Below are positions 27,563-64,000 of a stretch of 64,000 bases of DNA, in pieces. The stretch is from a virus: IMG/VR virus record IMGVR_UViG_3300044568_003751, positions 1 through 64,000 of that record. One strand, written 5' to 3'. The position numbers and the translations under genes are program-made. Positions within the stretch are counted from its first letter, which is position 1; each line of letters begins with the position of its first letter. Under the pieces are notes generated by a model. That model saw only the letters and a list, made by a program, of their open reading frames with translations. It made no database searches and was not told the origin of the DNA.

Positions 27563-27618
27563 ATTAATTTTCGATCCCGATGATCACAAAATTGCTACAT
27601 ATAGAAGGAAAGATTTCA

Positions 27619-28578: not shown

Positions 28579-29854
28579 TACCATGTGTCTTGCACCCTGG
28601 GTGCATACCTATCTTTCACCGCAGACTGAGCGCAGAATGTGTTGTGCGTCACGGGAACCTGCGCAGAATTTTGAACAGTACATAGATACTGCCGCAGGCA
28701 CAGGGCGATATATACCCGTGACTCTTGAGGCGCACTGGAATTCAGAACACATGCGATCAGTACGGCGGCGCATGATGGCCGGAGAAACACTACCAGAATG
28801 TGAGGTTTGTAATGACCGGTTACTCAATGTATCCGTATACCGCGATTATTTTTGGCACCTGTTCCAGGGAAGACTTGATCAAATATGGGATAACACTGAA
28901 CCAGATGGATCGACTCATATGCGCCCTGTTTCATGGGATTATAGGTTTTCAAACCTGTGCAATTTCAAATGTAGAACCTGTGGCGACATGCTGTCCAGCG
29001 CCTGGGAGAGTGAACAAAAGCAGAACAACATGGTTGACTGGGCTAATCCTAAAAACAATTGGATGCGAAACGATATACGTGCCGAAATCTCACATTTTCA
29101 GGATAGTCAAATTGAAGCCGAATTCAGTTCAGCTGTTGAGCAACACAGAGTAGAAGAAATATACTGGGTGGGTGGCGAACCCCTGATGTACGAACAGCAC
29201 TGGCGTTACATGAAACGAATCGTAGAACTAGGAGACGGGGGGAAATTATATGCTAGATACAATACTAATCTTAGCCGCGTACACTATCGCGGCATTGATC
29301 TTTTTGACGATATTCTCAGTCATGTTCGGGACTGGCAAATATGTGCTAGCCTGGATGGAACTGACCACATTGGGGAATATATTCGTACAGGATTGGATTA
29401 TGCACAGTTCAAGCGTAATTTTGAACACGGACTACAGTACGCAACAAATGCCAGACAAATGCGTATTGATTTTACACTCACTTTGCCCGGAATGTTCGAA
29501 ACGGATGCAATACAACAATTGGCAAAACAGTTTGGAGTAGAACTGCTGGCCAAGGTTATCTTCAGTTTCTCACCAGATATTATCTTGAGTCCTTTAGCAT
29601 TACCTAGACACATACTAGATTCATGGATCGACGAACTAGCAGGCCGCTCCGCAGGTGCCATGCGTGATGTACTGTTACAATTAAAGACCCGGCCCACATT
29701 TGAGGAACAATGGCCGGATCAATATCGTGCAGGGCTTGCAAAAGGCAAAGCCCGTGTGTTACAACTAGAACAAATAAGAACACAGTCAGTAACAATGACA
29801 GATATCCTGGGCAGCCGTCCAGAAGTACTAGAATGGTGGATGAAAATTGCTTGA
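28565..29854 (+). CDS. Radical SAM enzyme with N-terminal twitch/SPASM domain
   Basis: CNFKCRTC and VGGEP. N-terminal CLAPW...MCC...CEVC. Confidence 0.9.
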   Translation: MRKPDTMCLAPWVHTYLSPQTERRMCCASREPAQNFEQYIDTAAGTGRYIPVTLEAHWNSEHMRSVRRRMMAGETLPECEVCNDRLLNVSVYRDYFWHLFQGRLDQIWDNTEPDGSTHMRPVSWDYRFSNLCNFKCRTCGDMLSSAWESEQKQNNMVDWANPKNNWMRNDIRAEISHFQDSQIEAEFSSAVEQHRVEEIYWVGGEPLMYEQHWRYMKRIVELGDGGKLYARYNTNLSRVHYRGIDLFDDILSHVRDWQICASLDGTDHIGEYIRTGLDYAQFKRNFEHGLQYATNARQMRIDFTLTLPGMFETDAIQQLAKQFGVELLAKVIFSFSPDIILSPLALPRHILDSWIDELAGRSAGAMRDVLLQLKTRPTFEEQWPDQYRAGLAKGKARVLQLEQIRTQSVTMTDILGSRPEVLEWWMKIA

Positions 29855-30884: not shown

Positions 30885-30982
30885 AATGGATTCGCAGACT
30901 TTGGGATAGAATTACGCTAGAATATCGTTATCGTAAAAAATTAAAAGAACTACGCAAACGAGATCCTTTTATCTACAAATGA
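30881..30982 (+). CDS. 33-aa basic peptide (MKWIRRLWDRITLEYRYRKKLKELRKRDPFIYK), not in ORF track
   Basis: SD AAGGA upstream. ATGA overlaps on both sides fill the gap exactly. Confidence 0.75.
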   Translation: MKWIRRLWDRITLEYRYRKKLKELRKRDPFIYK

Positions 30983-32457
30983 ATATTCTTGGTATCTCTG
31001 CAGGCTTTCATGATGCCGCTGCCACAGTTGTCTCACCTGACGGGGAGATACTGTTTGCTGCACATTCTGAGCGTTATAGCAAAAAGAAAAACGACGCTGA
31101 CTTTTGTCAGGGCTTGCTAGACGAAATTCTTGAATATGGTCCTGAAACAGTTGCGTACTATGAACGCCCTTGGGCAAAACAAGCAAGACAATGGTACGCA
31201 GGCCAAGGCGTTGAATGGGACAAACTAACAACAAAACAAATATTACGTAAACAGTTGGGCGGACAAATTGAACCTGAGCGGGTACACAGTTACAATCACC
31301 ATTTATCGCATGCGGCCGCGGGCTTTCAAACCAGCCCGTTTGAACGTGCCACAGTGGTGGTAATAGATGCAATAGGTGAATGGGATACCGTCAGTATCTG
31401 GGGTGCCGAATATGATTCAAAAGGTCGGGCACAGTACAAGAGATTATGGCGTCAGATTTATCCACACTCAATTGGGCTGTTCTACAGTGCAGTGACCAGC
31501 CGCATTGGCCTACACCCACTGGACGAAGAATACATCACCATGGGCATGGCAGCCTGGGGACGCAACACCTGGTATCATGACATGCGTGAACATGTTATTG
31601 CTAGTGAACGTGATCTTGAACTGCGACACAACTTTCACACAGGCATGAGCGCAGAGTTCTTGGTAGGCGCCAGTAATGAAAACATTGCAGCCGCTGGGCA
31701 GTTGGTAGCAGAAGATCTTATTCGACAAGTAATGATTCGCGCTAGAAACCTAGGTTTTAATTCAAATCTGGTATATATGGGTGGGGTGGCATTGAATTGC
31801 ACAGCCAACCGAATGCTAGGAGATTACTTTGAAAATATATGGATTATGCCTTGTCCCGGTGATGCTGGTAGCAGTCTCGGTTGTGCCGCTTTGGCTCTTG
31901 GGCGTAGAATTAACTGGCGCAACAGTTATCTGGGCCATTGCATTCCAGGTGTTTATCCTGTTAACCAGTTGCTGGATCGGCTTCTTGGTGACAAAATTGT
32001 CGGAGTGGCATCAGGCAGAGCCGAGTTTGGCCCCCGCGCACTCGGAAACCGTAGCCTCCTTGCAGATCCTAGAGGCAGCGAGATCAAGGAGAAAGTAAAT
32101 GCGATCAAACGTAGACAACAGTTTAGGCCGTTTGCCCCGGTCATACTGGCTGAGGTGGCTGATGACTATTTTGATATGCCAGTGGGTTGGCATCATAGTC
32201 CTTATATGCAGTCAGTCGCTAGGTGTCGCCAGCCTAGCCTTACTCCTGCTGTATGTCATGTTGATGGTACCAGCCGAGTACAGACTGTGGCGAAAGATGG
32301 ATCAGGCATAAGAGAACTACTAGAAAAATGGTATGTGCTAACAGGATGCCCTATGTTGTTAAACACGTCATTAAACATACGTGGAGAACCCATGGTCAAT
32401 GATCGAGCAGATGCCGATCGTTTTGAACAGTTATACAGCGTTAAGGTTTGCAGTTAA
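30979..32457 (+). CDS. O-carbamoyltransferase (NodU/CmcH/TobZ family)
   Basis: ILGISAGFHDAAA, HHLSHAA, GGVALNC, EFGPRALGNRS, FRPFAP, HVDGTSRVQTV and LNTSLN motifs. Confidence 0.93.
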   Translation: MNILGISAGFHDAAATVVSPDGEILFAAHSERYSKKKNDADFCQGLLDEILEYGPETVAYYERPWAKQARQWYAGQGVEWDKLTTKQILRKQLGGQIEPERVHSYNHHLSHAAAGFQTSPFERATVVVIDAIGEWDTVSIWGAEYDSKGRAQYKRLWRQIYPHSIGLFYSAVTSRIGLHPLDEEYITMGMAAWGRNTWYHDMREHVIASERDLELRHNFHTGMSAEFLVGASNENIAAAGQLVAEDLIRQVMIRARNLGFNSNLVYMGGVALNCTANRMLGDYFENIWIMPCPGDAGSSLGCAALALGRRINWRNSYLGHCIPGVYPVNQLLDRLLGDKIVGVASGRAEFGPRALGNRSLLADPRGSEIKEKVNAIKRRQQFRPFAPVILAEVADDYFDMPVGWHHSPYMQSVARCRQPSLTPAVCHVDGTSRVQTVAKDGSGIRELLEKWYVLTGCPMLLNTSLNIRGEPMVNDRADADRFEQLYSVKVCS

Positions 32458-46819: not shown

Positions 46820-47362
46820 TCAAGCACCTGCTTGGATTTCTAAAAGTGGAATATTTTCCTCATGGTTTATAACCCATTCAATAGTGTTGGCTAGTCTGTC
46901 TAAACTTAACCATGTGGCATGTTCGGGTTTGCCATCGTTTAACCCGCCGGCAATTATATGAGAAGTCTTAATTCCTTTTTTCTTGTTTAACTGAAGACTG
47001 CGATCTCGCAAAGATCTTTTTTGTATGCTATAAGTTCCGTAGATACTGTCTGAAGGAATACCAGTAACACCCATCCATTCGGCATTGCTTCCGATGTTTA
47101 TAATATGACCGTTGATGTTGTTTTTAGACCACTCATCCCATGTGGCTTCTAGCAATGCTAATTGGCCACCACCACAAATAAAAGAACTATTAATAAAGAT
47201 TTTGTAGTTCTTAATTTCTTTTCTAAAAAAATCTTCACTGCCCGGAGTCCAAAATCTAAGATCGAATTCAGTGGCTCTACTTGCAAATTTTGCATTAGGA
47301 AATTTTCTTCTAATGGCAGACGCAACAGTAATATGTTCCGGATTTCCCGTACAAAGCATCAT
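46820..47362 (-). CDS. Short-chain dehydrogenase/reductase-like protein (truncated N-terminus)
   Basis: IINIGS and YSIQK (YxxxK). AT-rich. Confidence 0.6.
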   Translation of the reverse strand: MMLCTGNPEHITVASAIRRKFPNAKFASRATEFDLRFWTPGSEDFFRKEIKNYKIFINSSFICGGGQLALLEATWDEWSKNNINGHIINIGSNAEWMGVTGIPSDSIYGTYSIQKRSLRDRSLQLNKKKGIKTSHIIAGGLNDGKPEHATWLSLDRLANTIEWVINHEENIPLLEIQAGA

Positions 47363-48498
47363 GATATAAATTTACTCCATTCTGGATTTAGCATTCTAAA
47401 ATTTGTGTTTCTTATTTTATCTAATTTGGATATGTCTGTCCAAAAACTATTATGCGATTGATCACTAATATTTAATAACTTTAACAATGATTGTATATCT
47501 TTGTAGTTGTGAAATTTGTTCTCTAGTGCAGAGTAAGTATCTTGCGACACGTGATTAAGAGCAAAGGGTTTGGTAGCCTTTTGGAAAATTAAATTGGTCG
47601 GATCCTGATATCTGTTGTAAGGAAATTTTTCTTTCCACCAATCATATATTTCATTGAGATAGAAAAAATTAAGATACCCCCAAGTACAATTTATGTTGAA
47701 CATATGATTGTGTGGCATGTTGTTATAGTACCAGTCTAAATTAGATTCTAATTCTTTCCATTGAATCCCGGTTCGTTGATACTCAAAACGTTGCCCAACA
47801 TCATCTATGCTAAAATAAATCTCAATGAGTTTACATTTTTCCCATAATTTTAGAATGTCATCAGAAACAGTTTTTGTGCCGTTGGTGTTATAGAATACTC
47901 TAACGTCTGATAATCCTTTTATCTCGTGTATTTTTGATAGTAGTCTAACATGATTTTCTGACAATAGTGGCTCTCCACCTCCATGAAAATGTAAAGATTT
48001 TAAATTTTTTAATAATTCAACATCATCAATTTCAAGTTGTTCGTATTTTTTATATTGGAACAACTCAATGGAACGATTTGGATGTAATTTTTGATAGTCC
48101 GGGATCCATTGAGAACTGTTATGTGGGCCGCATATAACACATTTTAAGTTACAAAGATTACCAACACTATAGTCAAGTCCTTGTGGACCTTCTAGATCAA
48201 TTTCGGTATCTTTGTGATACTCTTCATAGAGTCGTTTTGCCCCTTGCCTGCGACTTTCTTGTCCATTAGCTTCGGCATTGTAACAGGTTTGACACCCAGA
48301 TATAGGTATGTCGTTTTCGACACATTTTTTTAATTCGGCACGTTCGGGTCCATTCCAAACCTGATCTAAATCAAACTCGGTTGACTCTTTAATATAACCC
48401 TTAAAAAAACTACAAGGATTATATCCTAACTTACCGTTGTGAGACCATATGGCAAGATTTTTATAAATTTCGTAACAAAAGTATTTTTTATTTTTCAT
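47359..48498 (-). CDS. Radical SAM enzyme with N-terminal twitch/SPASM-like domain
   Basis: CNLKCVIC, GGGEP and NTNGT motifs. AT-rich. Confidence 0.9.
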   Translation of the reverse strand: MKNKKYFCYEIYKNLAIWSHNGKLGYNPCSFFKGYIKESTEFDLDQVWNGPERAELKKCVENDIPISGCQTCYNAEANGQESRRQGAKRLYEEYHKDTEIDLEGPQGLDYSVGNLCNLKCVICGPHNSSQWIPDYQKLHPNRSIELFQYKKYEQLEIDDVELLKNLKSLHFHGGGEPLLSENHVRLLSKIHEIKGLSDVRVFYNTNGTKTVSDDILKLWEKCKLIEIYFSIDDVGQRFEYQRTGIQWKELESNLDWYYNNMPHNHMFNINCTWGYLNFFYLNEIYDWWKEKFPYNRYQDPTNLIFQKATKPFALNHVSQDTYSALENKFHNYKDIQSLLKLLNISDQSHNSFWTDISKLDKIRNTNFRMLNPEWSKFIS

Positions 48499-50759: not shown

Positions 50760-50788
50760 ATTATAACCGATCTTGAATTATTGGTCAA
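50760..50788 (-). promoter_or_regulatory. Early promoter TTGACC-17-TATAAT
   Basis: Same family. Confidence 0.8.
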
Positions 50789-54631: not shown

Positions 54632-55634
54632 TCCATTGCTGTGCCAGTAGTTCTGTTTTCTTTTTTGTATACCATATGAACTGCATACTACCTACTTTAC
54701 GAGCAATTTTGAGATATTGCTCATTAGCGTAGAAACAGTTTATGTATTGCTTCATAAATTGTTTATACGATGCATAATTGTCATGGTCGATTACTTGATT
54801 TATATTGTGCCACATGTAGTTTTCAAACCCTGCAAAGTCAAAGAACGCACTGGTTTTTGCGGTTTGTGTGAATGCACTGTCTTTGGGAGAAAAGATTTGA
54901 TTTTTAGTTGCAGCATAAAACCACCAACGTGCCTCTAACACCGTTTCAATAGGTCGTTGAGCTAATGCAAAATATTCTGTGCAAAATTCTTGCAGTGACG
55001 GATCTGTTATTATAATCTGCCAGGGCTTGTGTAGAACTTGGTAACCTAGATTATCAAAGAAACTTTCGTCAAGACTGGCTGTGAACTCGTCGCCACCGTG
55101 GCCGTTAATCATAATACCATCAAAAACTGTTTCTAAATACACATCACCGCTGATGTCTAGCATTTCTAATGTGGGATAATTTTTTTGTAGATATTCAAAG
55201 AATTCGCGATTTTCGTATACACTGAATGGGGAGTATAACACACGCAATTGATCTAGGTGTGTGGCATGTTTTAAGAATCCTGCTACCAAACAGGTTGAGT
55301 CAATGCCGCCACTCCAGCACAGGTTAAGTTTTTCTCCTGTGCCGATGTAGTTGTCGACTCTTTGTGCCATGACTTCATCAAAGGTTTGTTTTGCTACAGG
55401 GGCTTGCCAAGGCCGCTGTACTGCAAACGCAAAAGGTCCAGGAACAGTTTGTGTTCTATCTACAGGCATACCGGCTGGATTGCTTGAAAATATAGAGTTT
55501 AACTCAATCAGATTATTGTAACGATCAAAACCTTCAACCTTGGCAAGACTGCCTATCAACTGATACGGTTTGTTTTGCCAGTCTAGTATTCTATAAAAAA
55601 AACTAGGATTAATTGTTGATAACAATGGTTTCAT
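54516..55634 (-). CDS. PP-loop (asparagine-synthase-like) protein
   Basis: LCWSGGIDST and INGHGGDE motifs. Confidence 0.7.
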   Translation of the reverse strand: MKPLLSTINPSFFYRILDWQNKPYQLIGSLAKVEGFDRYNNLIELNSIFSSNPAGMPVDRTQTVPGPFAFAVQRPWQAPVAKQTFDEVMAQRVDNYIGTGEKLNLCWSGGIDSTCLVAGFLKHATHLDQLRVLYSPFSVYENREFFEYLQKNYPTLEMLDISGDVYLETVFDGIMINGHGGDEFTASLDESFFDNLGYQVLHKPWQIIITDPSLQEFCTEYFALAQRPIETVLEARWWFYAATKNQIFSPKDSAFTQTAKTSAFFDFAGFENYMWHNINQVIDHDNYASYKQFMKQYINCFYANEQYLKIARKVGSMQFIWYTKKKTELLAQQWIAYLEDGTGIRTPNLPLFSKCEFQNTYGDSLEYLFNYH

Positions 55635-55903
55635 GCGCTTCGATTAATTATTATATATATATAGAGATCTATTTGAAAATCGTCAAGGTCACCGGCATCA
55701 TCTGTTTGAAAATTCTGTATCTTGACCAGCAATTGGTTCTCATACAAATTTAGATGTTTCAGCATCCTAATCCTACGTTTAACTATAGTGGGATCTGTAG
55801 CGTTTACCAGCAACTCATCGAGTAACTGTGTTCTAGCTTGATTTGTTTTCGTAATTAATTTTTTTATTATTTTTATTTTGTAATAGTTTATATTGCTGCT
55901 CAT
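55631..55903 (-). CDS. Hypothetical protein (~90 aa)
   Basis: ATG at 55903 after a GTAAATA promoter. The longer ORF-track call runs over tRNAs. Confidence 0.5.
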   Translation of the reverse strand: MSSNINYYKIKIIKKLITKTNQARTQLLDELLVNATDPTIVKRRIRMLKHLNLYENQLLVKIQNFQTDDAGDLDDFQIDLYIYIIINRSA

Positions 55904-55930
55904 GATATATTTACTTGAAAACTTATCAGG

Positions 55931-56007
55931 TGGCCAGGTCCTGTAAGGAATTACCTCCACATTTCCGGGTTCGAAGCCCGGGATTCTATCCATTGAACTA
56001 AAGGCCG
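55931..56007 (-). pseudogene. Degenerate tRNA-Arg(TCG)
   Basis: D arm and anticodon arm (CCGGG-CTTCGAA-CCCGG) intact. T arm and acceptor poorly paired. Confidence 0.55.
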
Positions 56008-56011
56008 AATA

Positions 56012-56085
56012 TGGTGCTCCCACCGGGTAACGATCCTGGGTTTCTACATTACCAATGTAGTGTAATGCCTTTATACTATAGGAGC
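56012..56085 (-). tRNA. tRNA-Thr(GGT)
   Basis: CTACA-TTGGTAA-TGTAG, encoded CCA, T loop ATCGTTA. Confidence 0.85.
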
Positions 56086-56088
56086 AAC

Positions 56089-56124
56089 TGGAGCGGAATA
56101 CCAGAATCGAACTGGTCACCTAAA
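56089..56124 (-). pseudogene. 3' fragment of tRNA-Gly (att-like duplication)
   Basis: GTGACCAGTTCGATTCTGGTATTCCGCTCCA, nearly identical to the 3' end of the tRNA at 57465. Confidence 0.8.
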
Positions 56125-56165
56125 TCAAGTAATTTTGTTATGAATTTTTTCCAACAGGAATAGTA

Positions 56166-57017
56166 TTATGTAACTCTTGAAGTGCTTACAAGACAAGTTC
56201 GATGCATAACACGTGGACAATCATCTGGCGTGCCAGCGGCCAGATGCATCAATGCACGATTATCCCAAAACACAATATCAAACGGTTTCCATTTGTGTCG
56301 GTAAACATATCTGGGGTTGGTAGTGTGCTCAAATAAAAATTGCAGGAGTTCCTGGCCTTCTTTTTCGGGCAACCCGTCGATTCTAGAAGTAAAATGTGGG
56401 TTTACCCATAAAGTTTTGAATCCACCTACTGGATGTTGTTGTACAATAGATTGCAATCTAGGAGGATTCAACTCCCGTTGTTCATCAGAAAGACTTTGTC
56501 GCCAAGGATTCCGAGATTGCAATTCGTCATATTTAAGATAGTACACATGCTCGGCTTGTAGGCATTGCAATTGTTGTTTCATGTCTGCACTGAGATCATC
56601 ATATGCGGCTTGTTGATCAGCAAACAGGGTATCACCACCTTGAGAAGGCAATAACTGTGCATGTAAAAATGTTCCATAGCCAGGATACTCTTTCCAACTG
56701 CTGTCTGCATGCCAGTAGAGACCGGCATCACGCATACCCAGTGGCCGGCCATCTTTGACAATATTGGATAATACCAACACTTCGGGTTGACTTGGCAAAG
56801 GGAAATCAAGCACTGGATGATTGTTAGATGCTAATGTTCCAAAGTTTTTGCAAAAAAAGACAAGTTTATCAGGGGTAATTTGTTGATCCCGGAATATCAA
56901 CAGATGTTCCTTGAGATGCGTTGATTTTAAATCAGCAATTGCTTGACTACTTAGCCGCTGAGAACAATCAAGATCTGTAACTTCTGCGCCAAATGTTGCT
57001 AGTGCCGTAATTTTCAT
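56166..57017 (-). CDS. TauD/TfdA family Fe(II)/2-oxoglutarate dioxygenase
   Basis: WHAD, GGDTLFAD, YRHKW..FD...WDNRALMH and RVMHR motifs. Confidence 0.9.
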   Translation of the reverse strand: MKITALATFGAEVTDLDCSQRLSSQAIADLKSTHLKEHLLIFRDQQITPDKLVFFCKNFGTLASNNHPVLDFPLPSQPEVLVLSNIVKDGRPLGMRDAGLYWHADSSWKEYPGYGTFLHAQLLPSQGGDTLFADQQAAYDDLSADMKQQLQCLQAEHVYYLKYDELQSRNPWRQSLSDEQRELNPPRLQSIVQQHPVGGFKTLWVNPHFTSRIDGLPEKEGQELLQFLFEHTTNPRYVYRHKWKPFDIVFWDNRALMHLAAGTPDDCPRVMHRTCLVSTSRVT

Positions 57018-57056
57018 GGTGCAATTACTTAGTTGACACCAAAGTTAGTCAGATAA

Positions 57057-57380
57057 TTATTCAGGATTAACTTGGGCACTAATAATCATTGGAGGATATT
57101 CGAGTCCTTGACCTAAATTTTCTGATAGAACAACATCAACCCAGGCTTGTGCAGTGGCAAGATCGGGCCAAGTACGACTGATATGTCTTGGTGTGCCTTC
57201 AGTCACACTTTCAACTACAGATTCATTTACAAGGTTATCACTTGAACATCCGTGCGTTTTTGTAAATCTTTCTAAAATTGATTCGAAATTCATTTTGTAA
57301 GCAGACATTGCTGTTACAAATTCGCTTTCAGATAAGCGATGATGGGCAAATCCCCCGAAAACTACAGTAGTTGTAGGCAT
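57057..57380 (-). CDS. Hypothetical protein
   Basis: SD GGAGA. CATAAATA promoter near 57404-57411. Confidence 0.55.
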   Translation of the reverse strand: MPTTTVVFGGFAHHRLSESEFVTAMSAYKMNFESILERFTKTHGCSSDNLVNESVVESVTEGTPRHISRTWPDLATAQAWVDVVLSENLGQGLEYPPMIISAQVNPE

Positions 57381-57464
57381 ATAAATCTCCAATTCACGTC
57401 GAGTATTTATGCTGGACTTGTCAATAATATTCAAGAGTTATTGTAGTATAAAATTACAAATATT

Positions 57465-57538
57465 TGGAGCGGGATACGAGAATCGAACTCGTCACTAAAC
57501 CTTGGCAAGATTTCGAGATACCACTTCACCAATCCCGC
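57465..57538 (-). tRNA. tRNA-Gly(GCC)
   Basis: AAATC-TTGCCAA-GGTTT, CCA end. Confidence 0.88.
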
Positions 57539-57544
57539 ATTTGA

Positions 57545-57606
57545 GAAAAACCCTGTCGTGTGAGCCAACTTCCGGGAGTGGGCAACTCACAGAGGACAGG
57601 GCCGTG
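57545..57606 (-). other. Long bulged hairpin followed by T tract (terminator or small RNA)
   Basis: CCCTGTC/GACAGGG and GTGAG/CTCAC stems. Confidence 0.5.
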
Positions 57607-57619
57607 TTGTTATTACTTG

Positions 57620-58093
57620 TTAGGCTGCACGTAGATCTTTGAATCTATCTGCCGCATATGAAGCCGCAAACGCATCGGGTTTGACAAAAGGTATAACATT
57701 ACACACACCTTTGATGTAGCCTATGGCCTGTGATATTACACAACTTGATCCGTGTATTTCGTCTGGGTTGATGTCCAAGTGAACTTCAACTTCACGTCCT
57801 TCTAGTACTTCGGCCAGTTTCAAGTACAATTCGCTCACTTTGTACACTTCGGTCATCAACCTTAAACTGGGACGACTGGCTCGTTGATCCCAGTCGCGTT
57901 CACGTTGCACTTCACCAAACAGTTTGCAACCGTTGTTGCCATTGATGTGTACCACAATGGCCAACACATAGTCAGCATGCCAGGCACCGTTGATTTTTAC
58001 ACGCTCTGAATCGCAACCAAGATAGATTCGAGTTTCGGGTGTTTGCGCCCGTATAAACTGTGCCACTTGGTCAATGTCTAGTTTTTTCATCAT
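57620..58093 (-). CDS. RNase H-like YkuK family protein
   Basis: IYLGCDS, RLMTEV, EVHLDIN and KPDAFAASYAAD motifs. Confidence 0.8.
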   Translation of the reverse strand: MMKKLDIDQVAQFIRAQTPETRIYLGCDSERVKINGAWHADYVLAIVVHINGNNGCKLFGEVQRERDWDQRASRPSLRLMTEVYKVSELYLKLAEVLEGREVEVHLDINPDEIHGSSCVISQAIGYIKGVCNVIPFVKPDAFAASYAADRFKDLRAA

Positions 58094-58134
58094 CGTCTTT
58101 CTATTTAACTCAAAAACTGTTACAGTTTTATTAA

Positions 58135-58215
58135 TGGTACCCCGGGTGGGAGTTGAACCCACATTTGAATTTCTCCTTTTGAGAGAGATGACTTTGCCAA
58201 TTTGTCTACCGGGGC
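58135..58215 (-). tRNA. tRNA-Leu(CAA)
   Basis: TCTCT-CTCAAAA-GGAGA, CCA end. Confidence 0.82.
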
Positions 58216-58218
58216 AAT

Positions 58219-58301
58219 TGGTACGAGTAGCCGGACTTGAACCGGCAAGCCTAAGCGGAAGATTTTAAATCTTCTGAGTTTACCAATTTCTCCATACTCG
58301 C
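58219..58301 (-). tRNA. tRNA-Leu(TAA)
   Basis: GAAGA-TTTAAAA-TCTTC, variable arm, CCA end. Confidence 0.88.
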
Positions 58302-58305
58302 TGAA

Positions 58306-58382
58306 TGGTGCCCCAAGAGAGACTCGAACTCTCAAAATTTGGCTTCTAAGACCAACACGTATACCAATTCCGTCATCGGGGC
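58306..58382 (-). tRNA. tRNA-Leu(TAG), short variable loop
   Basis: TTGGT-CTTAGAA-GCCAA, 77 nt. Confidence 0.82.
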
Positions 58383-58547
58383 AAATAAATATCATTATGA
58401 TTACAATTGAACATGCTATGCAAACGTTATTCCAAATATCTGGTACACAGCCGTATGTGCCAGAAACTCATGCTACCACCACTAGACAATTCACTGTGAA
58501 TGCCATGCTAGAGCCGCTGAATCTAAAGTTCAAACTAGATCCCTTGT

Positions 58548-58623
58548 TGGTGCCTCCTCCAGGTTCCGACCCTGGTTCCCCGGATTTTCAATCCGGTGCT
58601 ATGACCACATCAGCTAAAGAGGC
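58548..58623 (-). tRNA. tRNA-Phe(GAA)
   Basis: CCGGA-TTGAAAA-TCCGG, atypical T loop GTCGGAA. Confidence 0.85.
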
Positions 58624-58628
58624 GTAAT

Positions 58629-58702
58629 TGGTACCTCGTGACAGAATCGAACTGCCGTAACCGCCGTGTAAAGACGGAGTTCTACCATTAAACTAACGAG
58701 GC
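58629..58702 (-). tRNA. tRNA-Val(TAC)
   Basis: CCGTC-TTTACAC-GGCGG. Confidence 0.88.
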
Positions 58703-58707
58703 GTATT

Positions 58708-58799
58708 TGGCGGAAGACGGAGGAGTCGAACCCCATCCGATTTCTCGGAACCTGGTTTTCAAGGCCAGTCGCGGCACCAACCCCGCTGCATCATCTTCC
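58708..58799 (-). tRNA. tRNA-Ser(TGA), non-canonical 8/4-type cloverleaf
   Basis: Acceptor GGAAGATG/CGTCTTCC (8 bp), T stem 4 bp, long variable arm, G73. Confidence 0.75.
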
Positions 58800-58810
58800 T
58801 TATTGAATTA

Positions 58811-58992
58811 AAAAAAGTACTACCCGATGTTTAAGGGTATAGAACATCCTTTCGGGTAGCCCTTGTCCCTCCAGCAACATAAAACGACTGTGACTAGCAG
58901 TCTACCGCGGCTTTCGCCCGTTCAGCGGCGCTGGATCTAATAAGGTCCCTGGTAGTTGGGCCCATAGTCAATGAGTTTTTAACACACTTTTT
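58811..58992 (-). ncRNA. Candidate structured ncRNA A (~180 nt)
   Basis: Multiple nested helices, GAAA tetraloop and a possible pseudoknot. No ORF. Confidence 0.55.
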
Positions 58993-58999
58993 CTAAACT

Positions 59000-59077
59000 T
59001 GGAGTAGCGGGTGAGATTCGAACTCACGGCTTTACGGATTTGCAATCCGTTCCCTTGGACCACTCGGGCACCGCTAC
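59000..59077 (-). tRNA. tRNA-Cys(GCA)
   Basis: ACGGA-TTGCAAA-TCCGT, U73. Confidence 0.9.
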
Positions 59078-59083
59078 ATAAAT

Positions 59084-59236
59084 TTAACTTGGCACAATAT
59101 GAGGAATGTAAGGAACGGCTCGAGGTCCGCCGTACATCTGCTCAAACAACTTCTTGGCTTCCTGCGGTGTGCCCGCATAGATACGCTTTTTTTCTTCGCC
59201 CTGTGGTGTGCGAACTGTTGTTTCATACATTGGCAT
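59084..59236 (-). CDS. 50-aa protein, not in ORF track (MPMYETTVRTPQGEEKKRIY...)
   Basis: Strong SD AGGAGA. Fills the gap between two tRNAs. Confidence 0.7.
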   Translation of the reverse strand: MPMYETTVRTPQGEEKKRIYAGTPQEAKKLFEQMYGGPRAVPYIPHIVPS

Positions 59237-59250
59237 ATTATTCTCCTAAT

Positions 59251-59327
59251 TGGTCCGAGTAGTAGGATTCAAACCTACGACCCTCTGGTCCCAAACCAGA
59301 TGCGCTATCAGGCTGCGCTATACTCGG
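59251..59327 (-). tRNA. tRNA-Pro(TGG)
   Basis: TCTGG-TTTGGGA-CCAGA. Confidence 0.88.
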
Positions 59328-59333
59328 GTAATT

Positions 59334-59561
59334 TTATTTCTTGGCCGACAACGGCTCTTGTGACTTTTCTATCTCTGATGTCTCGGCAAATCCTGCATTG
59401 CCACCAAAACCTTTCCAGCTGTCTTCTGTAAAAATTCTAACAGGTCGCCAGAAGCGGGCAATGATGTTGTTGATCACCACAATTCCAATTGCCACAGCAA
59501 TAAAGCCTAATGCTGTCAAAACACTACCGGCTAAAAATACCGCCGCTTGATCCATGTCCAT
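59334..59561 (-). CDS. Small single-TM membrane protein
   Basis: Hydrophobic N-terminal helix. SD AAGGA. Confidence 0.65.
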   Translation of the reverse strand: MDMDQAAVFLAGSVLTALGFIAVAIGIVVINNIIARFWRPVRIFTEDSWKGFGGNAGFAETSEIEKSQEPLSAKK

Positions 59562-59578
59562 AAGTTTTTCCTTAATTT

Positions 59579-59652
59579 TGGAGCGGGATGAGAGAATCGA
59601 ACTCTCAACTCTAACTTGGAAGGATAGCGTTTTGCCACTAAACTAATCCCGC
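59579..59652 (-). tRNA. tRNA-Gly(TCC)
   Basis: CTTCCAA loop, GCGGGAT/ATCCCGC acceptor. Confidence 0.87.
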
Positions 59653-59698
59653 GTTGAACATGTAGTATACAATATTTTTTGGATATTGTAAAGACATT

Positions 59699-59772
59699 TG
59701 GTTCCCTGTCGAGGTAACGATCCTCGGTCTCTCGATTATCAGTCGAGTGCTCTACCTTTGAGCTAACGGGGA
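59699..59772 (-). tRNA. tRNA-Ile(GAT)
   Basis: CTCGA-CTGATAA-TCGAG, T loop ATCGTTA. Confidence 0.85.
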
Positions 59773-59778
59773 AAATAC

Positions 59779-59852
59779 TGGCACGGGAACTAGGGCTCGA
59801 ACCTAGAATGACAGAGTCAAAGTCTGTAGTGTTACCATTACACTATTCCCGA
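59779..59852 (-). tRNA. tRNA-Gln(TTG)
   Basis: ACAGA-CTTTGAC-TCTGT. Confidence 0.88.
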
Positions 59853-59864
59853 ACAAAAACTTTA

Positions 59865-59939
59865 TGGTGGATGAGAGTAGAGTCGAACTACCACTTGACT
59901 CCGTATGAAGGAGGCGCACTACCATTATGCTACTCATCC
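59865..59939 (-). tRNA. tRNA with CAT anticodon (elongator Met or Ile2)
   Basis: CTCC-TTCATAC-GGAG, paired G1-C72. Confidence 0.8.
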
Positions 59940-59941
59940 AT

Positions 59942-60018
59942 TGGGGTGCATGATGGGATTCGAACCCACGCATATCGGAATCACAATCCGAGGTCTTGAC
60001 CGCTTGACGACACGCACC
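59942..60018 (-). tRNA. tRNA-His(GTG)
   Basis: TCGGA-TTGTGAT-TCCGA, G-1:C73. Confidence 0.9.
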
Positions 60019-60052
60019 ATATAGAAACACACCAAGCAAATATGTTTTCATA

Positions 60053-60127
60053 TGGTAGGGGCACAGAGAATCGAACTCTGATTTACGGGTTAAAAGCCCG
60101 CTACTTTGGCCGTTAAGTTATACCCCC
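60053..60127 (-). tRNA. tRNA-Lys(TTT)
   Basis: GCGGG-CTTTTAA-CCCGT. Confidence 0.88.
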
Positions 60128-60179
60128 ACTAATCTTATCACTCTTGTCACAGTCTATGGGACTCTCCTTTTAAAATATT

Positions 60180-60254
60180 TGGTACCGCTGGAAGGAATCA
60201 AACCTCCATCCCCACGTTCGTAGCATGGTGTCCTGTTCATTGAACGACAGCGAT
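60180..60254 (-). tRNA. tRNA-Arg(ACG)
   Basis: CCATG-CTACGAA-CGTGG. Confidence 0.85.
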
Positions 60255-60259
60255 ATGAT

Positions 60260-60333
60260 TGGTGCCCCATGAGAGAATCGAACTCCCGTACCCGGATTAC
60301 AAAACCGGTGTAATGCCATTATACTAATAGGGC
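60260..60333 (-). tRNA. tRNA-Thr(TGT)
   Basis: CCGG stem, TTTGTAA loop. Confidence 0.87.
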
Positions 60334-60339
60334 AAATTT

Positions 60340-60427
60340 TGGCGGAGTATGTAGGAATCGAACCTACTCGCCCATTTCTGAACGACAGTTTAGCAAACTG
60401 TTGCCTTAACCGGTCGGCCAATACTCC
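60340..60427 (-). tRNA. tRNA-Ser(GCT)
   Basis: ACAGT-TTGCTAA-ACTGT, long variable arm. Confidence 0.9.
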
Positions 60428-60435
60428 ATACTTAC

Positions 60436-60514
60436 TGGCTCCGCATTTCGGAATCGGACCGAACTAACCAGGGATTAACAGTCCCGCCCATGCACCTTGC
60501 TCGGGTTCTGCGGA
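60436..60514 (-). tRNA. tRNA-Asn(GTT), atypical D arm and T loop
   Basis: GGGA-CTGTTAA-TCCC, TCCGCA/TGCGGA acceptor, G73. Confidence 0.75.
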
Positions 60515-60555
60515 ATAAAACTACTTAGCAGGCACTCATGCCTGCCTTAAAAACA

Positions 60556-60641
60556 TGGTGGAGAGTCAGGGATTCGAACCCCGTATACCGTAAGGTGGAA
60601 GATTTACAGTCTCCTGAAGTCACCAATGCTTCTCACTCTCC
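60556..60641 (-). tRNA. tRNA-Tyr(GTA)
   Basis: GGAGA-CTGTAAA-TCTTC, variable arm. Confidence 0.88.
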
Positions 60642-60645
60642 AATT

Positions 60646-60720
60646 TGGTGGACCGTCCCGGGTTCGAACCGGGGACTGAGGCTTGCAAAGCCACTGTGTT
60701 CCCAACTATACCAACAGCCC
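60646..60720 (-). tRNA. tRNA-Ala(TGC)
   Basis: TTTGCAA loop, G3:U70. Confidence 0.88.
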
Positions 60721-60726
60721 ATAATT

Positions 60727-60800
60727 TGGCGACTCGTGATGGAATCGAACCACCGCTAGAAGTTTTGGAGACTTCCGCACTGCCACTATACTAACGAGCC
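60727..60800 (-). tRNA. tRNA-Trp(CCA)
   Basis: GAAGT-CTCCAAA-ACTTC. Confidence 0.88.
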
Positions 60801-60960
60801 ACGTCACACTGTTGCCAATGTGTGTATCAAAACACACTCTAAGAATATGCTTTGATACGCTCGGATTTTTTTTGTGTACAAGAACACAAGCCATCCCCGA
60901 GGCCGCCCATTTGCAGTTTTGAGTGTTGCAGGCTCGCGTTGCCATTGCACTTGATAACGC

Positions 60961-61008
60961 TTATTGCACGTTATCGTGAATCCACTTCCAGTACTCTTCT
61001 GTTGTCAT
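60961..61008 (-). CDS. 15-aa micro-ORF MTTEEYWKWIHDNVQ
   Basis: Strong SD AAGGAGA 6 nt upstream, directly after the attenuator terminator. Confidence 0.5.
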   Translation of the reverse strand: MTTEEYWKWIHDNVQ

Positions 61009-61021
61009 CGCTGTTCTCCTT

Positions 61022-61235
61022 AAAAAGAAAAACCCTGGAGTTTTTAGTTCCAGGGTCCTTGGCTTAGATACGATTGTATACTACGTTAAGACCCTGTGTC
61101 TCCTAGAATGATTGCTGTTGGGCGACCATAGGCATGTGACCAGGCTGGTGCCTGATTAAACATTGTCTTGGTTAGCAGTGAACAGATTTGTGTTTTCATA
61201 GTATCAATTATAGTTTATTTACCTTTGTGTGTCAA
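61022..61235 (-). promoter_or_regulatory. Putative attenuator 1: promoter, leaderless 37-aa leader ORF (61086-61199), antiterminator, intrinsic terminator
   Basis: TTGACA-17-TATAAT. CAGGGTCTT at the ORF end is complementary to AGGACCCTG in the terminator 5' arm. Terminator ACCCTGGA/TCCAGGGT plus T tract. Confidence 0.65.
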
Positions 61236-61276
61236 TCACTTTGGCAAACTTTTTTGTTGTATTTACGCAACAGATT

Positions 61277-62407
61277 TTATTCACCTATACAGAAGGGTTT
61301 GCTGTAGATTGGTGCACCAACATCTTTTCCAATTATGCTGTTAACGGGATTGGTACTGTTTTCTATCAAATGATTACAAAAGTTTTTTTCTAACAAAAGA
61401 TTTTTTATGCCTTTTACAAAAAGATCGGCCACAACATTGTCCTTCTTTAGCAAGGCATCTAGGCCAGTATCAAATGTTCGGGAAAGATCACCGTCAATGG
61501 TGTCCATTGTTATTACTACTGATTCAAATTTATTTTCTTGTATTTTTTGTGTGAAACTGCCACCTGATACTATCTCTTTTTGTCTAGACAAATTTTTTGC
61601 CCAAGAAATATAAGCGGCATTAGAAGAAATTCTAAATTTTGCGCCAGTAGGATCTAGACTAGCATTGTATGCATTTGCATTCATACGAAGTTTAAGCATT
61701 TTTTTAATCATATGACTTTGTTTGAGTGCCAAGACTGGGGCAGTAAAAAAACATTCAATATTCTCAAAATTCATTGTACTCAGCAAGGTTCTTGCATCAT
61801 GACATGAATAATATTTGTTATCTTTCTTGAATACTCTAGGTTGCTCGTGTCCAGTAATCAAACACCAAGTTGATCCACCAAACTGGTCGGCACAGTAATC
61901 CCACATGACAGAGTCCATGGTTCCCATGGCAAATTTAGGAATCATAGAAATATTTTTAAAAATCCAATCTTCTCCGGTTACAATTTGTTGTTTAGCCGCA
62001 GGATCAAATCGTTCTTTGACAGTGATTTTGGTCAAGGGATCATGATGATTATTTTTCAGCCAATCCACATACTGTGAATTGTACCAGGGCTCGTACTGAT
62101 CATTTACCCAGATAACAATTTCATCAATATGCAAATTATTACGTTTGAACACTTCGTAGATGGTCTGACTGTCAGTGCCACCGCTCCAGGACAGCATAAC
62201 GTGTTGATATTTGTTTCTTAAATTACATGCATGGCGATCCATCAGTTGATCAAGAGACTCGGTGGGTTCTTGCAACCAATTCAGTTGATCATTCTGTTGA
62301 TCATGACAAACAAACTCAATGGGTTTCTTGCTTACAAATGCCTCATATTTGGCAAGCAGGTGATTGAAAATTATTTTATTGTTGACACGAAAGTAGATGG
62401 AAGTCAT
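61277..62407 (-). CDS. PP-loop (adenine nucleotide alpha-hydrolase-like) protein
   Basis: LSWSGGTDSQT motif. AT-rich insert in the tRNA array. Confidence 0.65.
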   Translation of the reverse strand: MTSIYFRVNNKIIFNHLLAKYEAFVSKKPIEFVCHDQQNDQLNWLQEPTESLDQLMDRHACNLRNKYQHVMLSWSGGTDSQTIYEVFKRNNLHIDEIVIWVNDQYEPWYNSQYVDWLKNNHHDPLTKITVKERFDPAAKQQIVTGEDWIFKNISMIPKFAMGTMDSVMWDYCADQFGGSTWCLITGHEQPRVFKKDNKYYSCHDARTLLSTMNFENIECFFTAPVLALKQSHMIKKMLKLRMNANAYNASLDPTGAKFRISSNAAYISWAKNLSRQKEIVSGGSFTQKIQENKFESVVITMDTIDGDLSRTFDTGLDALLKKDNVVADLFVKGIKNLLLEKNFCNHLIENSTNPVNSIIGKDVGAPIYSKPFCIGE

Positions 62408-62416
62408 GTGTATGAT

Positions 62417-62490
62417 TGGATGCGGGGGACAGATTCGAACTGCCGATGCACCTGGCTTATGAGACCGGTGTGGTGACCGCCCTCCCCGCT
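62417..62490 (-). tRNA. Initiator-like tRNA-Met(CAT) with truncated D arm
   Basis: AGCGGGG/CCCCGCA with 1:72 mismatch, CTCATAA loop, normal T arm, CCA end. Confidence 0.6.
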
Positions 62491-62501
62491 GTGTATTTAA
62501 T

Positions 62502-62746
62502 GCTCTGCGTCCCCCGGCGGTAATTATAGTGTATCAGAAATTTGGTCAGCAAGCGATTAACTCACCAATTAGTCTATTCATCACTTACACCCTCCACCCG
62601 CTTCCCGACAGGGACCGTTCTCGTATTGCTAACGCCGGTTAGGTTGGACCGCTGATTGCTCAGTGAAACTTTTCCGTTTCAGAACCACCCGTAGTTGTCA
62701 CACTACTTCTCATCGTCGGGGTCAGACTATCCAGTGACGCTGGAAC
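62502..62746 (-). ncRNA. Candidate large structured ncRNA B (~245 nt)
   Basis: Ends pair (GCGTC/GACGC). Internal helices CCCGAC/GTCGGG, GTAGT/ACTAC, TGAAAC/GTTTCA, CTGA-GCAA-TCAG and GTGTA/TACAC. Confidence 0.6.
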
Positions 62747-62749
62747 GTT

Positions 62750-62815
62750 TGGGAGAGGCCACGGTTGCAGGATCTAGTGCCTTTTGCAAGGGAAGTATCC
62801 AGGCGGTGCGGCCTC
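62750..62815 (-). ncRNA. 66-nt CCA-ending tRNA-like/minihelix element
   Basis: 8-bp terminal stem GAGGCCGC/GTGGCCTC, CCTT-GCAA-AAGG hairpin, no T loop. Confidence 0.4.
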
Positions 62816-62820
62816 AAACT

Positions 62821-62896
62821 TGGCGGTCTTAGGGGGTAACGATCCCCACTCTTACGGCGTGACAAGCCGTCGTGCGTCCATGAACACTTTAAGACC
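62821..62896 (-). tRNA. tRNA-Asp(GTC)
   Basis: ACGGC-TTGTCAC-GCCGT, T loop ATCGTTA. Confidence 0.85.
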
Positions 62897-62899
62897 AAA

Positions 62900-63053
62900 T
62901 TTTTATAGTCAAGCACCGAGAATGCCAATTTAGGAGTCCTGCGCTAACAGTTCCAAAGCCGATGCAGTTATATTAGGATCAGTCGCCGGCCGCTGTGACC
63001 CGAATAGTGTTGGCGTCCCAACACGATACCTTATCGATGCTTGACTATAAAAA
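62900..63053 (-). ncRNA. Candidate ncRNA C closed by a perfect 16-bp terminal inverted repeat
   Basis: tttttatagtcaagca...tgcttgactataaaaa, with internal gtgttgg/ccaacac hairpin. Confidence 0.5.
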
Positions 63054-63056
63054 CAA

Positions 63057-63132
63057 TGGTGCTCCGTGGGGGAATCGAACCCCTCCTTACCCGCGTGAAA
63101 GGCGAGTGTCCTAACCGATAGACGAACGGAGC
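63057..63132 (-). tRNA. tRNA-Glu(TTC)
   Basis: CTTTCAC loop, GCTCCGT/ACGGAGC acceptor. Confidence 0.88.
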
Positions 63133-63144
63133 ATGTGATTTTAC

Positions 63145-63330
63145 ATTGAGGAACCATGTGGATCTTATTCTGCTTGGCTTGCGAGGCCAAGTCACCACGG
63201 TCATTACTGCCAGACGATCCGCCGCTTTTCTGAAACTGCAAGCAGTCTCGGCTTCATGACTGATAGCAAGTGGGCATCCGCCGATGCCAATTCACTTCTA
63301 CCAATGCCACTAACGGGTCTGGTAACCTCT
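63145..63330 (-). ncRNA. Candidate structured RNA D
   Basis: Helices CCAGAC/GTCTGG, GGCATC/GATGCC, AAGTG/CACTT and CTTGGC/GCCAAG. Confidence 0.4.
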
Positions 63331-63392
63331 TTGTATATTTTAAAGATCTGTTGCAAGTAGTCTCGATCGACTTTGTTGCTTTGTTAAGTTCT

Positions 63393-63421
63393 ATTGTAGC
63401 AGAGTTTCAATTTATGGTCTA
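63393..63421 (-). promoter_or_regulatory. Promoter TAGACC-17-TACAAT (early family variant)
   Basis: TGCTACAAT extended -10. Confidence 0.65.
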
Positions 63422-63424
63422 GCA

Positions 63425-63589
63425 CAAAAAAGAAAACCCTCCGAAGTGGAGGGTCTTTGTAAGTAGTACTTTCGTATTACAGGCAAAGTCCCCAATGGCA
63501 ATCCCACTCATGTTCTGAGCGAAGGGTTGTGATGATTGCAGTTGTTTGGTTCATAAGTGTATTATATATGACAAGTGATTGAAAGTCAA
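63425..63589 (-). promoter_or_regulatory. Putative attenuator 2: promoter, leaderless 25-aa leader ORF (63477-63554), antiterminator, terminator
   Basis: TTGACT-17-TATAAT. GGGGACTTTG near the ORF end pairs with CAAAGACCCT. Terminator ACCCTCC/GGAGGGT plus T tract. Confidence 0.6.
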
Positions 63590-63640
63590 GGCTTTTTGGC
63601 TCGATTGCAAGCAGGATCTCAACAAACTGTGTTACTTTGC

Positions 63641-64000
63641 TCATTTCTTAGTCAATAGTTTTACTGCCTGTTGATACTCACGCTCAATATCACGTGCAAA
63701 CTCATCGGGTGTTTGTTTTCGGGGAACTCCAGCATGTACCACAGTAACAATTTGTTTTTGCACTTCTTCGTTGGCTCTAGCACTTTCTAGCACATTGTAC
63801 AAGCGATCACGTGTGTCTTTGGGGGTGCCCGGTGGCGCCCAGAACCCAGTCCAGCCTTCTTGGCTGATATTGTACCCAAGTTCCACAAGACTTTTTATAC
63901 CATTACGTCCCTTTGGGGTTAGTACTGCCAGGCCGTTTAGTTCTCCAGTGGCAACTCGATCCTCCAACAAGAAAGTAACAGTGGTAACTTCGATACTCTT
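63641..64000 (-). CDS. Tripartite tricarboxylate transporter substrate-binding protein (Bug/TctC), C-terminal part
   Basis: G.L..LAV....R......L.ELGY...W.G.WAP.GTP...TPDEFA..I..E pattern. Runs off the window edge. Confidence 0.75.
   Translation of the reverse strand, partial: KSIEVTTVTFLLEDRVATGELNGLAVLTPKGRNGIKSLVELGYNISQEGWTGFWAPPGTPKDTRDRLYNVLESARANEEVQKQIVTVVHAGVPRKQTPDEFARDIEREYQQAVKLLTKK

Follow-up and report, generated by a model that had tools for sequence, protein, structure and literature searches.

A 64,000-nucleotide (nt) stretch of viral DNA, comprising positions 1 to 64,000 of the IMG/VR record IMGVR_UViG_3300044568_003751 and here called the window, carries an array of 22 transfer RNA (tRNA) genes preceded by a compact segment at 61022-61235 that we interpret as a translation-controlled (ribosome-mediated) transcription attenuator of this main tRNA array. 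Comparative sequence evidence leads us to give this reading a probability of roughly 0.7. The signal read by the switch appears to be the supply of the array's own tRNAs, a point on which we are somewhat less confident, and transcription of the 22 tRNAs probably takes place mainly during slow decoding by the ribosomes. The window makes up the first 64 kb of an 89-kb contig whose completeness was estimated with CheckV at 26%, and the contig is therefore regarded as a fragment of a very large phage genome. All switch and tRNA-array coordinates refer to the minus strand.

An initial annotation, made from the letters of the window alone, had placed in this segment a consensus promoter, a leaderless 37-codon open reading frame (ORF), a 9-bp complementarity between the end of this ORF and the 5' arm region of an intrinsic terminator, and more than 20 tRNAs beyond; all of these were found again at the same places. 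The sigma-70-type promoter (61207-61235) consists of a -35 box TTGACA (61235-61230), a 17-nt spacer and a -10 box TATAAT (61212-61207), matches the consensus at 12 of 12 positions and is the only perfect match within 56000-64000. The -35/-10 arrangement is kept in relatives, with spacers similar to GATAAATAAA. Seven nt past the -10 box, an ATG at 61199 opens the putatively leaderless ORF (61086-61199), whose 37-residue product MKTQICSLLTKTMFNQAPAWSHAYGRPTAIILGDTGS uses 18 of the 20 amino acids, with Glu and Val missing. Within the ORF, the hairpin P0 (61139-61156; AUCAGGC-ACCA-GCCUGGU) is present in both minimum-energy and centroid folds and ends at a conserved Trp codon. The last sense codons, together with the stop codon's first base, make up S2 (CAGGGTCTT, 61088-61096), the 5' strand of the antiterminator; the final T of S2 opens the TAA stop. 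S2 is followed by a small hairpin, H (61065-61083), which is variable in sequence and persistent in relatives and lies in the loop between S2 and S3. The switching strand S3 (AGGACCCTG, 61051-61059) can pair either with S2, in a 9-bp helix including one G.U pair, or with the terminator 3' arm. The intrinsic terminator (61022-61056) comprises the stem ACCCTGGA/TCCAGGGT (61056-61032) with the 9-nt loop ACTAAAAAC, a hairpin of -14.3 kcal/mol, and then the U-tract TTTTTCTTTTT extending to 61022; a consensus scan for promoters and terminators missed it, the loop limit of the scan being 8 nt. The S2:S3 helix takes in ACCCTG of the terminator 5' arm, and because S3 doubles as that arm, antiterminator and terminator are mutually exclusive. 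Behind the terminator lies the array itself (56012-60800; Trp, Ala, Tyr ... Gly, Thr), which serves 17 amino acids.

Folding of a transcript ending before the terminator 3' arm gave S2:S3 together with the inner hairpin in both the minimum-energy and the centroid structure (z = -3.08; 1 of 200 shuffles folds as well), and addition of the 3' arm flipped both structures to the terminator. In the mechanism that we propose, host RNA polymerase would start at the consensus promoter and the transcript would begin at or next to the AUG, giving a leaderless mRNA. P0 may act as a pause hairpin that synchronises polymerase and ribosome, by analogy with the trp leader. When free of the ribosome, S2 would pair with nascent S3, and the resulting rod (S2:S3 plus the inner hairpin) would hold the terminator 5' arm; with the rod formed, polymerase would go on to transcribe a 15-codon ORF and a structured RNA, and then the 22 tRNAs. 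A ribosome keeping pace through S2 to the stop codon would occupy S2, S3 would then pair with the terminator 3' arm (S4), and termination would follow at the U-tract. Were the ribosome to stall at a hungry codon lying over about 4 codons ahead of S2, S2 would stay free and read-through would result. The sensor codons would be those read by the array tRNAs, and slow decoding by these would yield more phage tRNA, in the manner of a demand gauge. P0 is conserved and is a candidate 1:2-type competitor of S2, yet S2:S3 still forms in whole-leader folds; on the same analogy, P0 may serve only as a pause hairpin.

Relatives of the switch were collected by several routes. The gene for a 376-aa (amino acid) protein upstream of the promoter led to one related contig with a protein identity of 82%, in which the leader ORF stays in frame over a 3-nt indel and S3 has A for the G of the window, turning the G.U pair into A-U. 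In 21 viral contigs the 23-nt terminator hairpin, with its loop, is identical, and 20 of these contigs have a homologous promoter and ORF upstream; L019 has the hairpin alone, behind an unrelated ORF. An nhmmer profile run over 251 sequences (250 loci and the window) added further units with different hairpins. Those of the loci that came from 14-nt pattern searches, whose matches, among those listed, were mostly due to chance, served only as a pool for nhmmer. The working set comprised 29 units from related giant-phage contigs, the window included and identical copies removed. The closest relative of the window leader, L252, has its stop codon directly 3' of S2 and an S2:S3 helix that is perfect over 10 bp.

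The leader ORF is open in 29/29 units, is 33-49 codons long and includes S2; in every unit its stop codon falls in the interval from S2 to S3, 16-31 nt before S3 and exactly 23 nt before it in 13/29. The ATG stands 6-10 nt past the -10 box in 23/29 units, and four units have instead a 5' untranslated region that is about 47 nt long and bears an AAGGA or AGGA Shine-Dalgarno sequence. The alternative two frames are open across the same span in 0/29 and 4/29 units. The ratio of non-synonymous to synonymous change (pN/pS), calculated from 12 non-overlapping pairs, was 0.55 for the ORF frame, against 1.12 for either of the other two, synonymous sites in the leader being also constrained by RNA structure. 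The ORF frame thus carries a coding signature, from which we infer that it is translated. If the segment were instead a non-coding element, such as a small RNA, a riboswitch-like structure or a protein-controlled terminator or antiterminator, with an open frame that is incidental, its strong RNA structure (z about -3), its several conserved helices and its invariant hairpin loop would all be expected. Such an element would not, however, call for the contrast in openness and in pN/pS among the frames, for the in-frame 3-nt indel that separates the leader ORFs of the window and L002, for Shine-Dalgarno sequences where a 5' untranslated region exists, or for a stop codon always sited between S2 and S3. 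Rfam 15, T-box included, gave no family match in 60801-61260 at E up to 1, and its matches in 55500-64000 at the same threshold were of tRNA type only. We consider this explanation very improbable.

Within the leader peptide, the core AWSHA.GRVNSIPG is strongly conserved and lies 5-17 codons before S2 in most units of this module (hereafter module 1, a second module being described below). Nascent-peptide ribosome arrest is known from the SecM and TnaC leaders, and a nascent ..AWSHA.GRVNSIPG.. could in the same manner stall the ribosome on a specific signal, in which case the stall and not tRNA supply would set the switch. The placement of the core and the constraint at the amino-acid level agree with this. 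The core is, however, absent or unrecognisable in the distant units L012, L004, L016, L017, L018 and L119, all of which keep the switch, and in the whole of module 2, and one core residue changes with the tRNA content of the array (Y versus F, S or N). Furthermore, the core Gln and Trp codons form the arms of P0, so part of the core conservation acts at the RNA level; in 26 of 28 Trp-bearing units the Trp codon is paired in a P0-equivalent hairpin, the inner pairs of which vary. Arrest by the peptide is therefore judged unlikely.

The two alternative helices of the proposed attenuator were compared across the 29 units. In a first whole-unit MAFFT alignment (A1) RNAalifold recovered the terminator only; since S2 and S3 were out of register in A1, the sequences were re-cut for a second alignment (A2). 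When units were folded individually and cut before S4, the S3 core paired inside the ORF, the two central pairs forming in 29/29 units and the flanking ones in 26-28 of 29; in L050 the fold selects a non-homologous partner for S3. S2:S3 forms the base of a rod that also has a middle helix and a small variable hairpin usually holding the stop codon. Full-length minimum-energy folds gave the rod in 21/29 units and the terminator in 8, the window among the latter, and therefore the two states are near in energy and the rod can form first. For the antiterminator, 84.8% of the cells in A2 are paired and changes on both sides occur in 5/9 pairs, a covariation score that was reached by 0/500 shuffles; sliding the partner by 1-3 columns lowered the pairing to 17-60%. 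Two rows of A2, L102 and L050b, are one column off and were scored as unpaired, an effect that works against structure. The compensatory changes include GGGTCT/AGACCC versus GGGTCC/GGACCC, with repeated U-A to C-G switches for which the U.G pair of the window is an intermediate, an inserted pair in L004 (GGGTTCC/GGAACCC), an extra G-C pair in L082 (GGGGTCC/GGACCCC) and GAGGG/CCCTC in L119. For the terminator, 97.7% of the cells are paired and 4/8 pairs are compensatory. The terminator loop ACUAAAAAC (61040-61048, minus strand) is invariant in the 21 contigs, and in folds retaining the antiterminator its A-run pairs with the U-tract at 61022-61031 (AAAAACU/GGUUUUU), a modelled pairing that may explain why the loop is conserved. 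The geometry of ribosome-mediated attenuation put forward in the initial annotation is supported comparatively by these results, with ORF, S2:S3 and terminator conserved in the 29 units; covariation and a fixed stop position, which it had proposed to look for in related phages, were both found, and the pairing and the ORF, on whose conservation it had made the proposal depend, are both kept.

The polarity of the switch was considered from the spacing that separates stop codon and terminator stem, which in the window amounts to 28 nt and in the family to 17-32 nt, most often 24 nt. According to the available text of one study in Escherichia coli (PMC4824070), a terminator lying more than 27 nt beyond a stop codon is no longer repressed by the ribosome. 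Because the spacing of 28 nt exceeds this limit, the terminator should be able to form while a ribosome stands at the stop codon. The opposite, pyrBI-like polarity would have a close ribosome block the terminator hairpin, with efficient translation leading to read-through and slow translation to termination. The shorter spacings in the family would allow for this, and for a spacing of 17-18 nt the same text describes termination in E. coli as sequence-dependent (PMC4824070). In the window, however, the spacing is beyond the 27-nt limit, the conserved and covarying antiterminator would be without purpose, tRNA synthesis would be cut exactly during slow decoding, and the match between leader codons and tRNAs described below would remain unexplained. 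We would be surprised if this reversed arrangement were correct. Read-through upon stalling fits better, because codons without an array tRNA are avoided only before S2.

The leader codons were compared with the downstream tRNAs in 25 units, 16 of module 1 (at least 12 tRNAs within the locus) and 9 of module 2. Before S2, Asp, Glu or Tyr is present in 35/35 cases in which that tRNA is in the array and in 7/40 cases in which it is not. Module-1 leaders are mostly without Asp, Glu or Tyr, and the Glu, Asp and often Tyr tRNAs of these phages are found in a separate block behind module 2. Residues with no matching array tRNA amount to 6/480 before S2 (1.2%) and 14/93 after it (15.1%), the background being about 16%. 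Four of the six exceptions before S2, the single Asp of the window among them, are no more than 3 codons away from S2, a position from which a stalled ribosome would extend over S2 itself; the leader of L252 lacks this Asp. The motif SHA-Y-GR occurs in the window, L002, L102 and L006 (as H-G-Y-V-R in L010), and in all of these tRNA-Tyr is in the module-1 array; elsewhere the Tyr position is occupied by F, S or N, and Tyr is then found in the module-2 leader alongside tRNA-Tyr. Of the 35 residues preceding S2 in the window, 33 are served by an array tRNA (P = 0.046 versus composition). Taken together, leader codons before S2 track the downstream tRNA set, and those after S2 do not. The sensing of the general tRNA pool that the initial annotation had suggested is thus retained in part: leader codons do follow tRNAs, but those of the amino acids served by their own array and not the pool as a whole. 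The window leader has no tandem run of a single regulatory codon and samples about 16 amino acids once or a few times each. Its amino-acid diversity was also considered as evidence of sensing and was rejected, as 18 kinds compare with 16.3 expected in random 37-aa pieces of the ORFs of this phage (P = 0.23 for the window); the initial annotation had itself called this diversity weak evidence.

A second module of the same layout is present at 63426-63589 (minus strand), ahead of tRNA-Glu and tRNA-Asp. It has a TTGACT-17-TATAAT promoter, a leaderless 25-codon ORF (MNQTTAIITTLRSEHEWDCHWGLCL), S2 and S3, a small hairpin and a terminator; its S2 GGGGACTTTG pairs with CAAAGACCCT at 9/10 positions. 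Homologues of module 2 were found in 9 loci, with the same layout and with a peptide unrelated to the module-1 leader. The terminator stems of this module vary (CCCTCC, CCCTGC, CCCGC), and in L082, L009 and L130 the 5' end of S2 matches the stem of its own locus. Glu and Asp are present in all module-2 leaders, and Tyr in 6/6 loci with tRNA-Tyr in the block and in 1/3 without. A peptide-specific function is argued against, because an unrelated peptide shares the same wiring. A broader reading, in which each tRNA block in this giant freshwater phage lineage stands behind its own codon-matched gauge and its tRNAs are made on demand, whenever decoding by just these tRNAs lags, and in which the sensor stretch is bounded by the footprint of the ribosome on the antiterminator strand and holds only codons of the block's tRNAs, is tentative and, as a whole, falls slightly short of an even chance.

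In 20/26 units, the window included, no sigma-70-like site with at least 9/12 matches was found between the terminator and the first tRNA, which in the window means up to tRNA-Trp; the scan covered sigma-70-like sites only. As these units lack a promoter-like site past the terminator, their tRNAs should need read-through. This bears on the possibility that the segment is an independent micro-gene, a small early unit whose functional product is the 37-aa peptide, with S2:S3 only shaping or stabilising the 3' end of the mRNA and the tRNAs expressed in some other way. The promoter-like site found after the terminator in the remaining 6/26 units would suit such a gene, as would a peptide core conserved in most relatives, a pN/pS below 1, a promoter and a terminator that are both strong, and the occurrence of leaderless ORFs of normal length elsewhere in this genome. 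It would not account for the 20/26 units without a promoter-like site ahead of the tRNAs, for a conserved pairing that uses exactly the terminator 5' arm, with covariation in both helices, or for the same layout around two unrelated peptides. Nor does a micro-gene explain why Asp, Glu and Tyr should be avoided before S2 alone, and there only if the corresponding tRNAs are lacking downstream, and its peptide is not recognised by Pfam (searched with the window leader) or by PHROGs (searched with four leader peptides). The chances of this explanation appear low.

Several observations weigh against the interpretation of the segment as an attenuator that senses its own tRNAs. The start of transcription, translation of the ORF, termination, read-through, the polarity of the switch and its physiological trigger are all inferred. 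The pN/pS alignments were guided by the peptide, which lowers pN somewhat and flatters the ORF frame, and even so a value of 0.55 indicates only moderate constraint. The left edge of A2 was set by each sequence's own fold, which makes this alignment lean towards structure. Thirteen of the 29 module-1 units were excluded from the codon comparison, having fewer than 12 tRNAs within the available locus, and array contents in general are limited by the locus ends; the excluded L005 and L021 have Asp before S2 and no Asp tRNA among their 6-7 tRNAs. The Fisher and binomial figures overstate independence because the units are related. The window leader has an Asn codon, yet no Asn tRNA is present in the 89-kb contig, and it has no Val despite a Val tRNA in the array. 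A promoter-like site follows the terminator in the 6/26 units mentioned above, although only the site of L018 is perfect (12/12). Codon sampling does not fully explain the conserved peptide core and the invariant hairpin loop. Finally, metatranscriptomes gave no decisive support: 14 DNA runs, from the lakes in which this phage occurs, contain at least half of the sampled words and six RNA runs 5-10%, and the contigs from four of the RNA runs that were aligned all came from relatives. In these four runs no RNA contig of at least 90% identity was found over 61074-61700, which settles nothing either way. One 333-nt contig from an RNA library (60718-61051; 15 other letters, 5 gaps) runs from the interior of the hairpin through the U-tract, the 15-codon ORF and the structured RNA into tRNA-Trp. 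It would fit read-through in a relative and is not counted as evidence, because it gives neither transcript ends nor strand and DNA carry-over is possible.

Leader-peptide attenuators are well known from enterobacteria (trpL, hisL and pheL, and the multivalent thr and ilvGMEDA leaders). The phage switch resembles these amino-acid operon attenuators in having a short ORF right behind the promoter and a terminator 5' arm that can alternatively pair upstream; in both, the position of the ribosome would decide the outcome and the codons of the ORF match what is supplied downstream. It differs from them in gating tRNAs instead of biosynthetic enzymes, in its putatively leaderless mRNA and in the lack of a single-codon run, so that the multivalent leaders are the nearer analogy. 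In its folds the phage leader also seems to have no 1:2-type strand that competes for S2, so that the predicted default without translation is read-through. Moreover, the element is borne by a phage, and one phage has two modules.

Two further systems share single aspects with the phage switch. The upstream ORF (uORF) of mycobacterial whiB7 (wblC) is of mixed composition and in Mycobacterium smegmatis contains every amino acid except Cys; stalling forms an antiterminator, the residues of the uORF determine the range of starvations sensed, and basal expression rises once the start codon is lost (PMC10274678, available text). On this partial account it resembles the phage leader in the breadth of its sensing, and differs in that it controls a transcription factor of a stress and resistance regulon, in that its uORF is enriched in Ala and in that it is chromosomal. 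The trn array of Anabaena sp. PCC 7120 holds many accessory tRNAs, is silent by default and is induced by impaired translation, with control exerted at the promoter by the repressor TrcR and by direct repeats that overlie the -10 box (PMC8421152, available text). The available text of a second paper on this array makes no mention of a leader, attenuation, a uORF, a terminator or stalling (PMC10272220). As far as these sources go, the Anabaena array is like that of the phage in its many accessory tRNAs and its induction by translation stress, and unlike it in having no leader-peptide/terminator switch. In pyrBI-type control, the fate of the terminator hinges on how closely the first ribosome trails the polymerase (PMC4824070, available text); in that system the hairpin is blocked by the ribosome itself, without need of an antiterminator helix, whereas the phage switch has a covarying antiterminator and a stop codon 17-32 nt before the stem.

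The tRNA genes of phages are usually discussed as helpers for codon usage or as spares against the loss of host tRNAs, and to our knowledge little is known about how their expression is controlled. Attenuation is known for amino-acid genes; for tRNA genes, and for phage tRNA arrays in particular, we found no description of control by a leader peptide or attenuator in open-access papers or on bioRxiv, in agreement with the initial annotation. If the reading is correct, the leader would sense decoding capacity directly and be coupled to tRNA output, extending classic attenuation from amino-acid supply to tRNA supply and closing a feedback loop on the latter. This loop could act as a built-in counter-defence after decay of host tRNAs or their cleavage by anticodon nucleases, although a trigger by anticodon-nuclease loss of host tRNAs is speculation. 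The switch bears on why giant phages carry near-complete tRNA sets, how they avoid the constant cost of these and whether the sets respond to defences that target tRNAs. With about 215 nt and a consensus sigma-70 promoter, it is a simple and portable part, and the difference in composition on either side of S2 provides a way to map, from sequence only, the sensing window of such switches.

Two further elements lie between the switch and the first tRNA. The 15-codon ORF MTTEEYWKWIHDNVQ (60961-61008, minus strand) is preceded by an AAGGAG Shine-Dalgarno sequence at 61021-61016 and is kept in L002, L018 and L252, which show synonymous changes and a swapped stop (TAA/TGA); in other relatives its slot holds an ORF of 50-60 aa or nothing. 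The structured RNA, here called RNA X (60801-60952, minus strand), has four helices, with changes on both sides in 15/37 predicted pairs (11 sequences) and an invariant single-stranded stretch similar to AAAUGGGCGGCC. No Rfam family matched RNA X at E up to 1, and its hairpin loop CACUCAAAAC may bear a faint likeness to a boxA element.

Upstream of the module-1 promoter, the gene for the 376-aa protein (61277-62407, minus strand) carries a SGGxDS-type motif and in PHROGs weakly matches PAPS reductase (E = 2e-4); Pfam gave no match, and tblastn against 50,697 GenBank phage records found no homologue. Among the 10 ORFs neighbouring the array there are no tRNA repair genes. Blastn of a 501-nt region of the window, and of a relative's unit together with its RNA X, against the same records gave no match, and no cultured carrier of the module is known from this collection. 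The contigs L251, L252 (from a Haliscomenobacter metagenome-assembled genome, MAG) and L253 (from a Flavobacteriales MAG), binned to Bacteroidota, carry the same module and tRNA arrays; since they look phage-like and binning is weak evidence, no conclusion on the host was drawn from the MAG labels.

Promoters of the form TTGAC.-N17-TATAAT followed after 5-8 nt by the ATG of an ORF of at least 77 aa were also seen at 50788 (minus strand) in the window and at 72059 and 76949 (minus strand) in the rest of the same genome, and leaderless mRNAs may be common in this phage. ARAGORN called a permuted transfer-messenger RNA gene outside the window (G000:C1:66475-66840; tag ANDSQFALAA), and likewise in the relatives L021 and L022. 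Adjoining tRNA-Thr at the far end of the array, a weak tRNA-like match at 55937-56006 (minus strand) falls below the Rfam threshold (26.4 versus 29 bits) and may be a degenerate tRNA. The window also harbours a large auxiliary-metabolism cluster (3-12836, 21292-29854 and 30979-32457 on the plus strand, 47359-48498 on the minus strand), which includes an ORF exceeding 4,250 codons together with five radical-SAM-like proteins and a Nol-like carbamoyltransferase.

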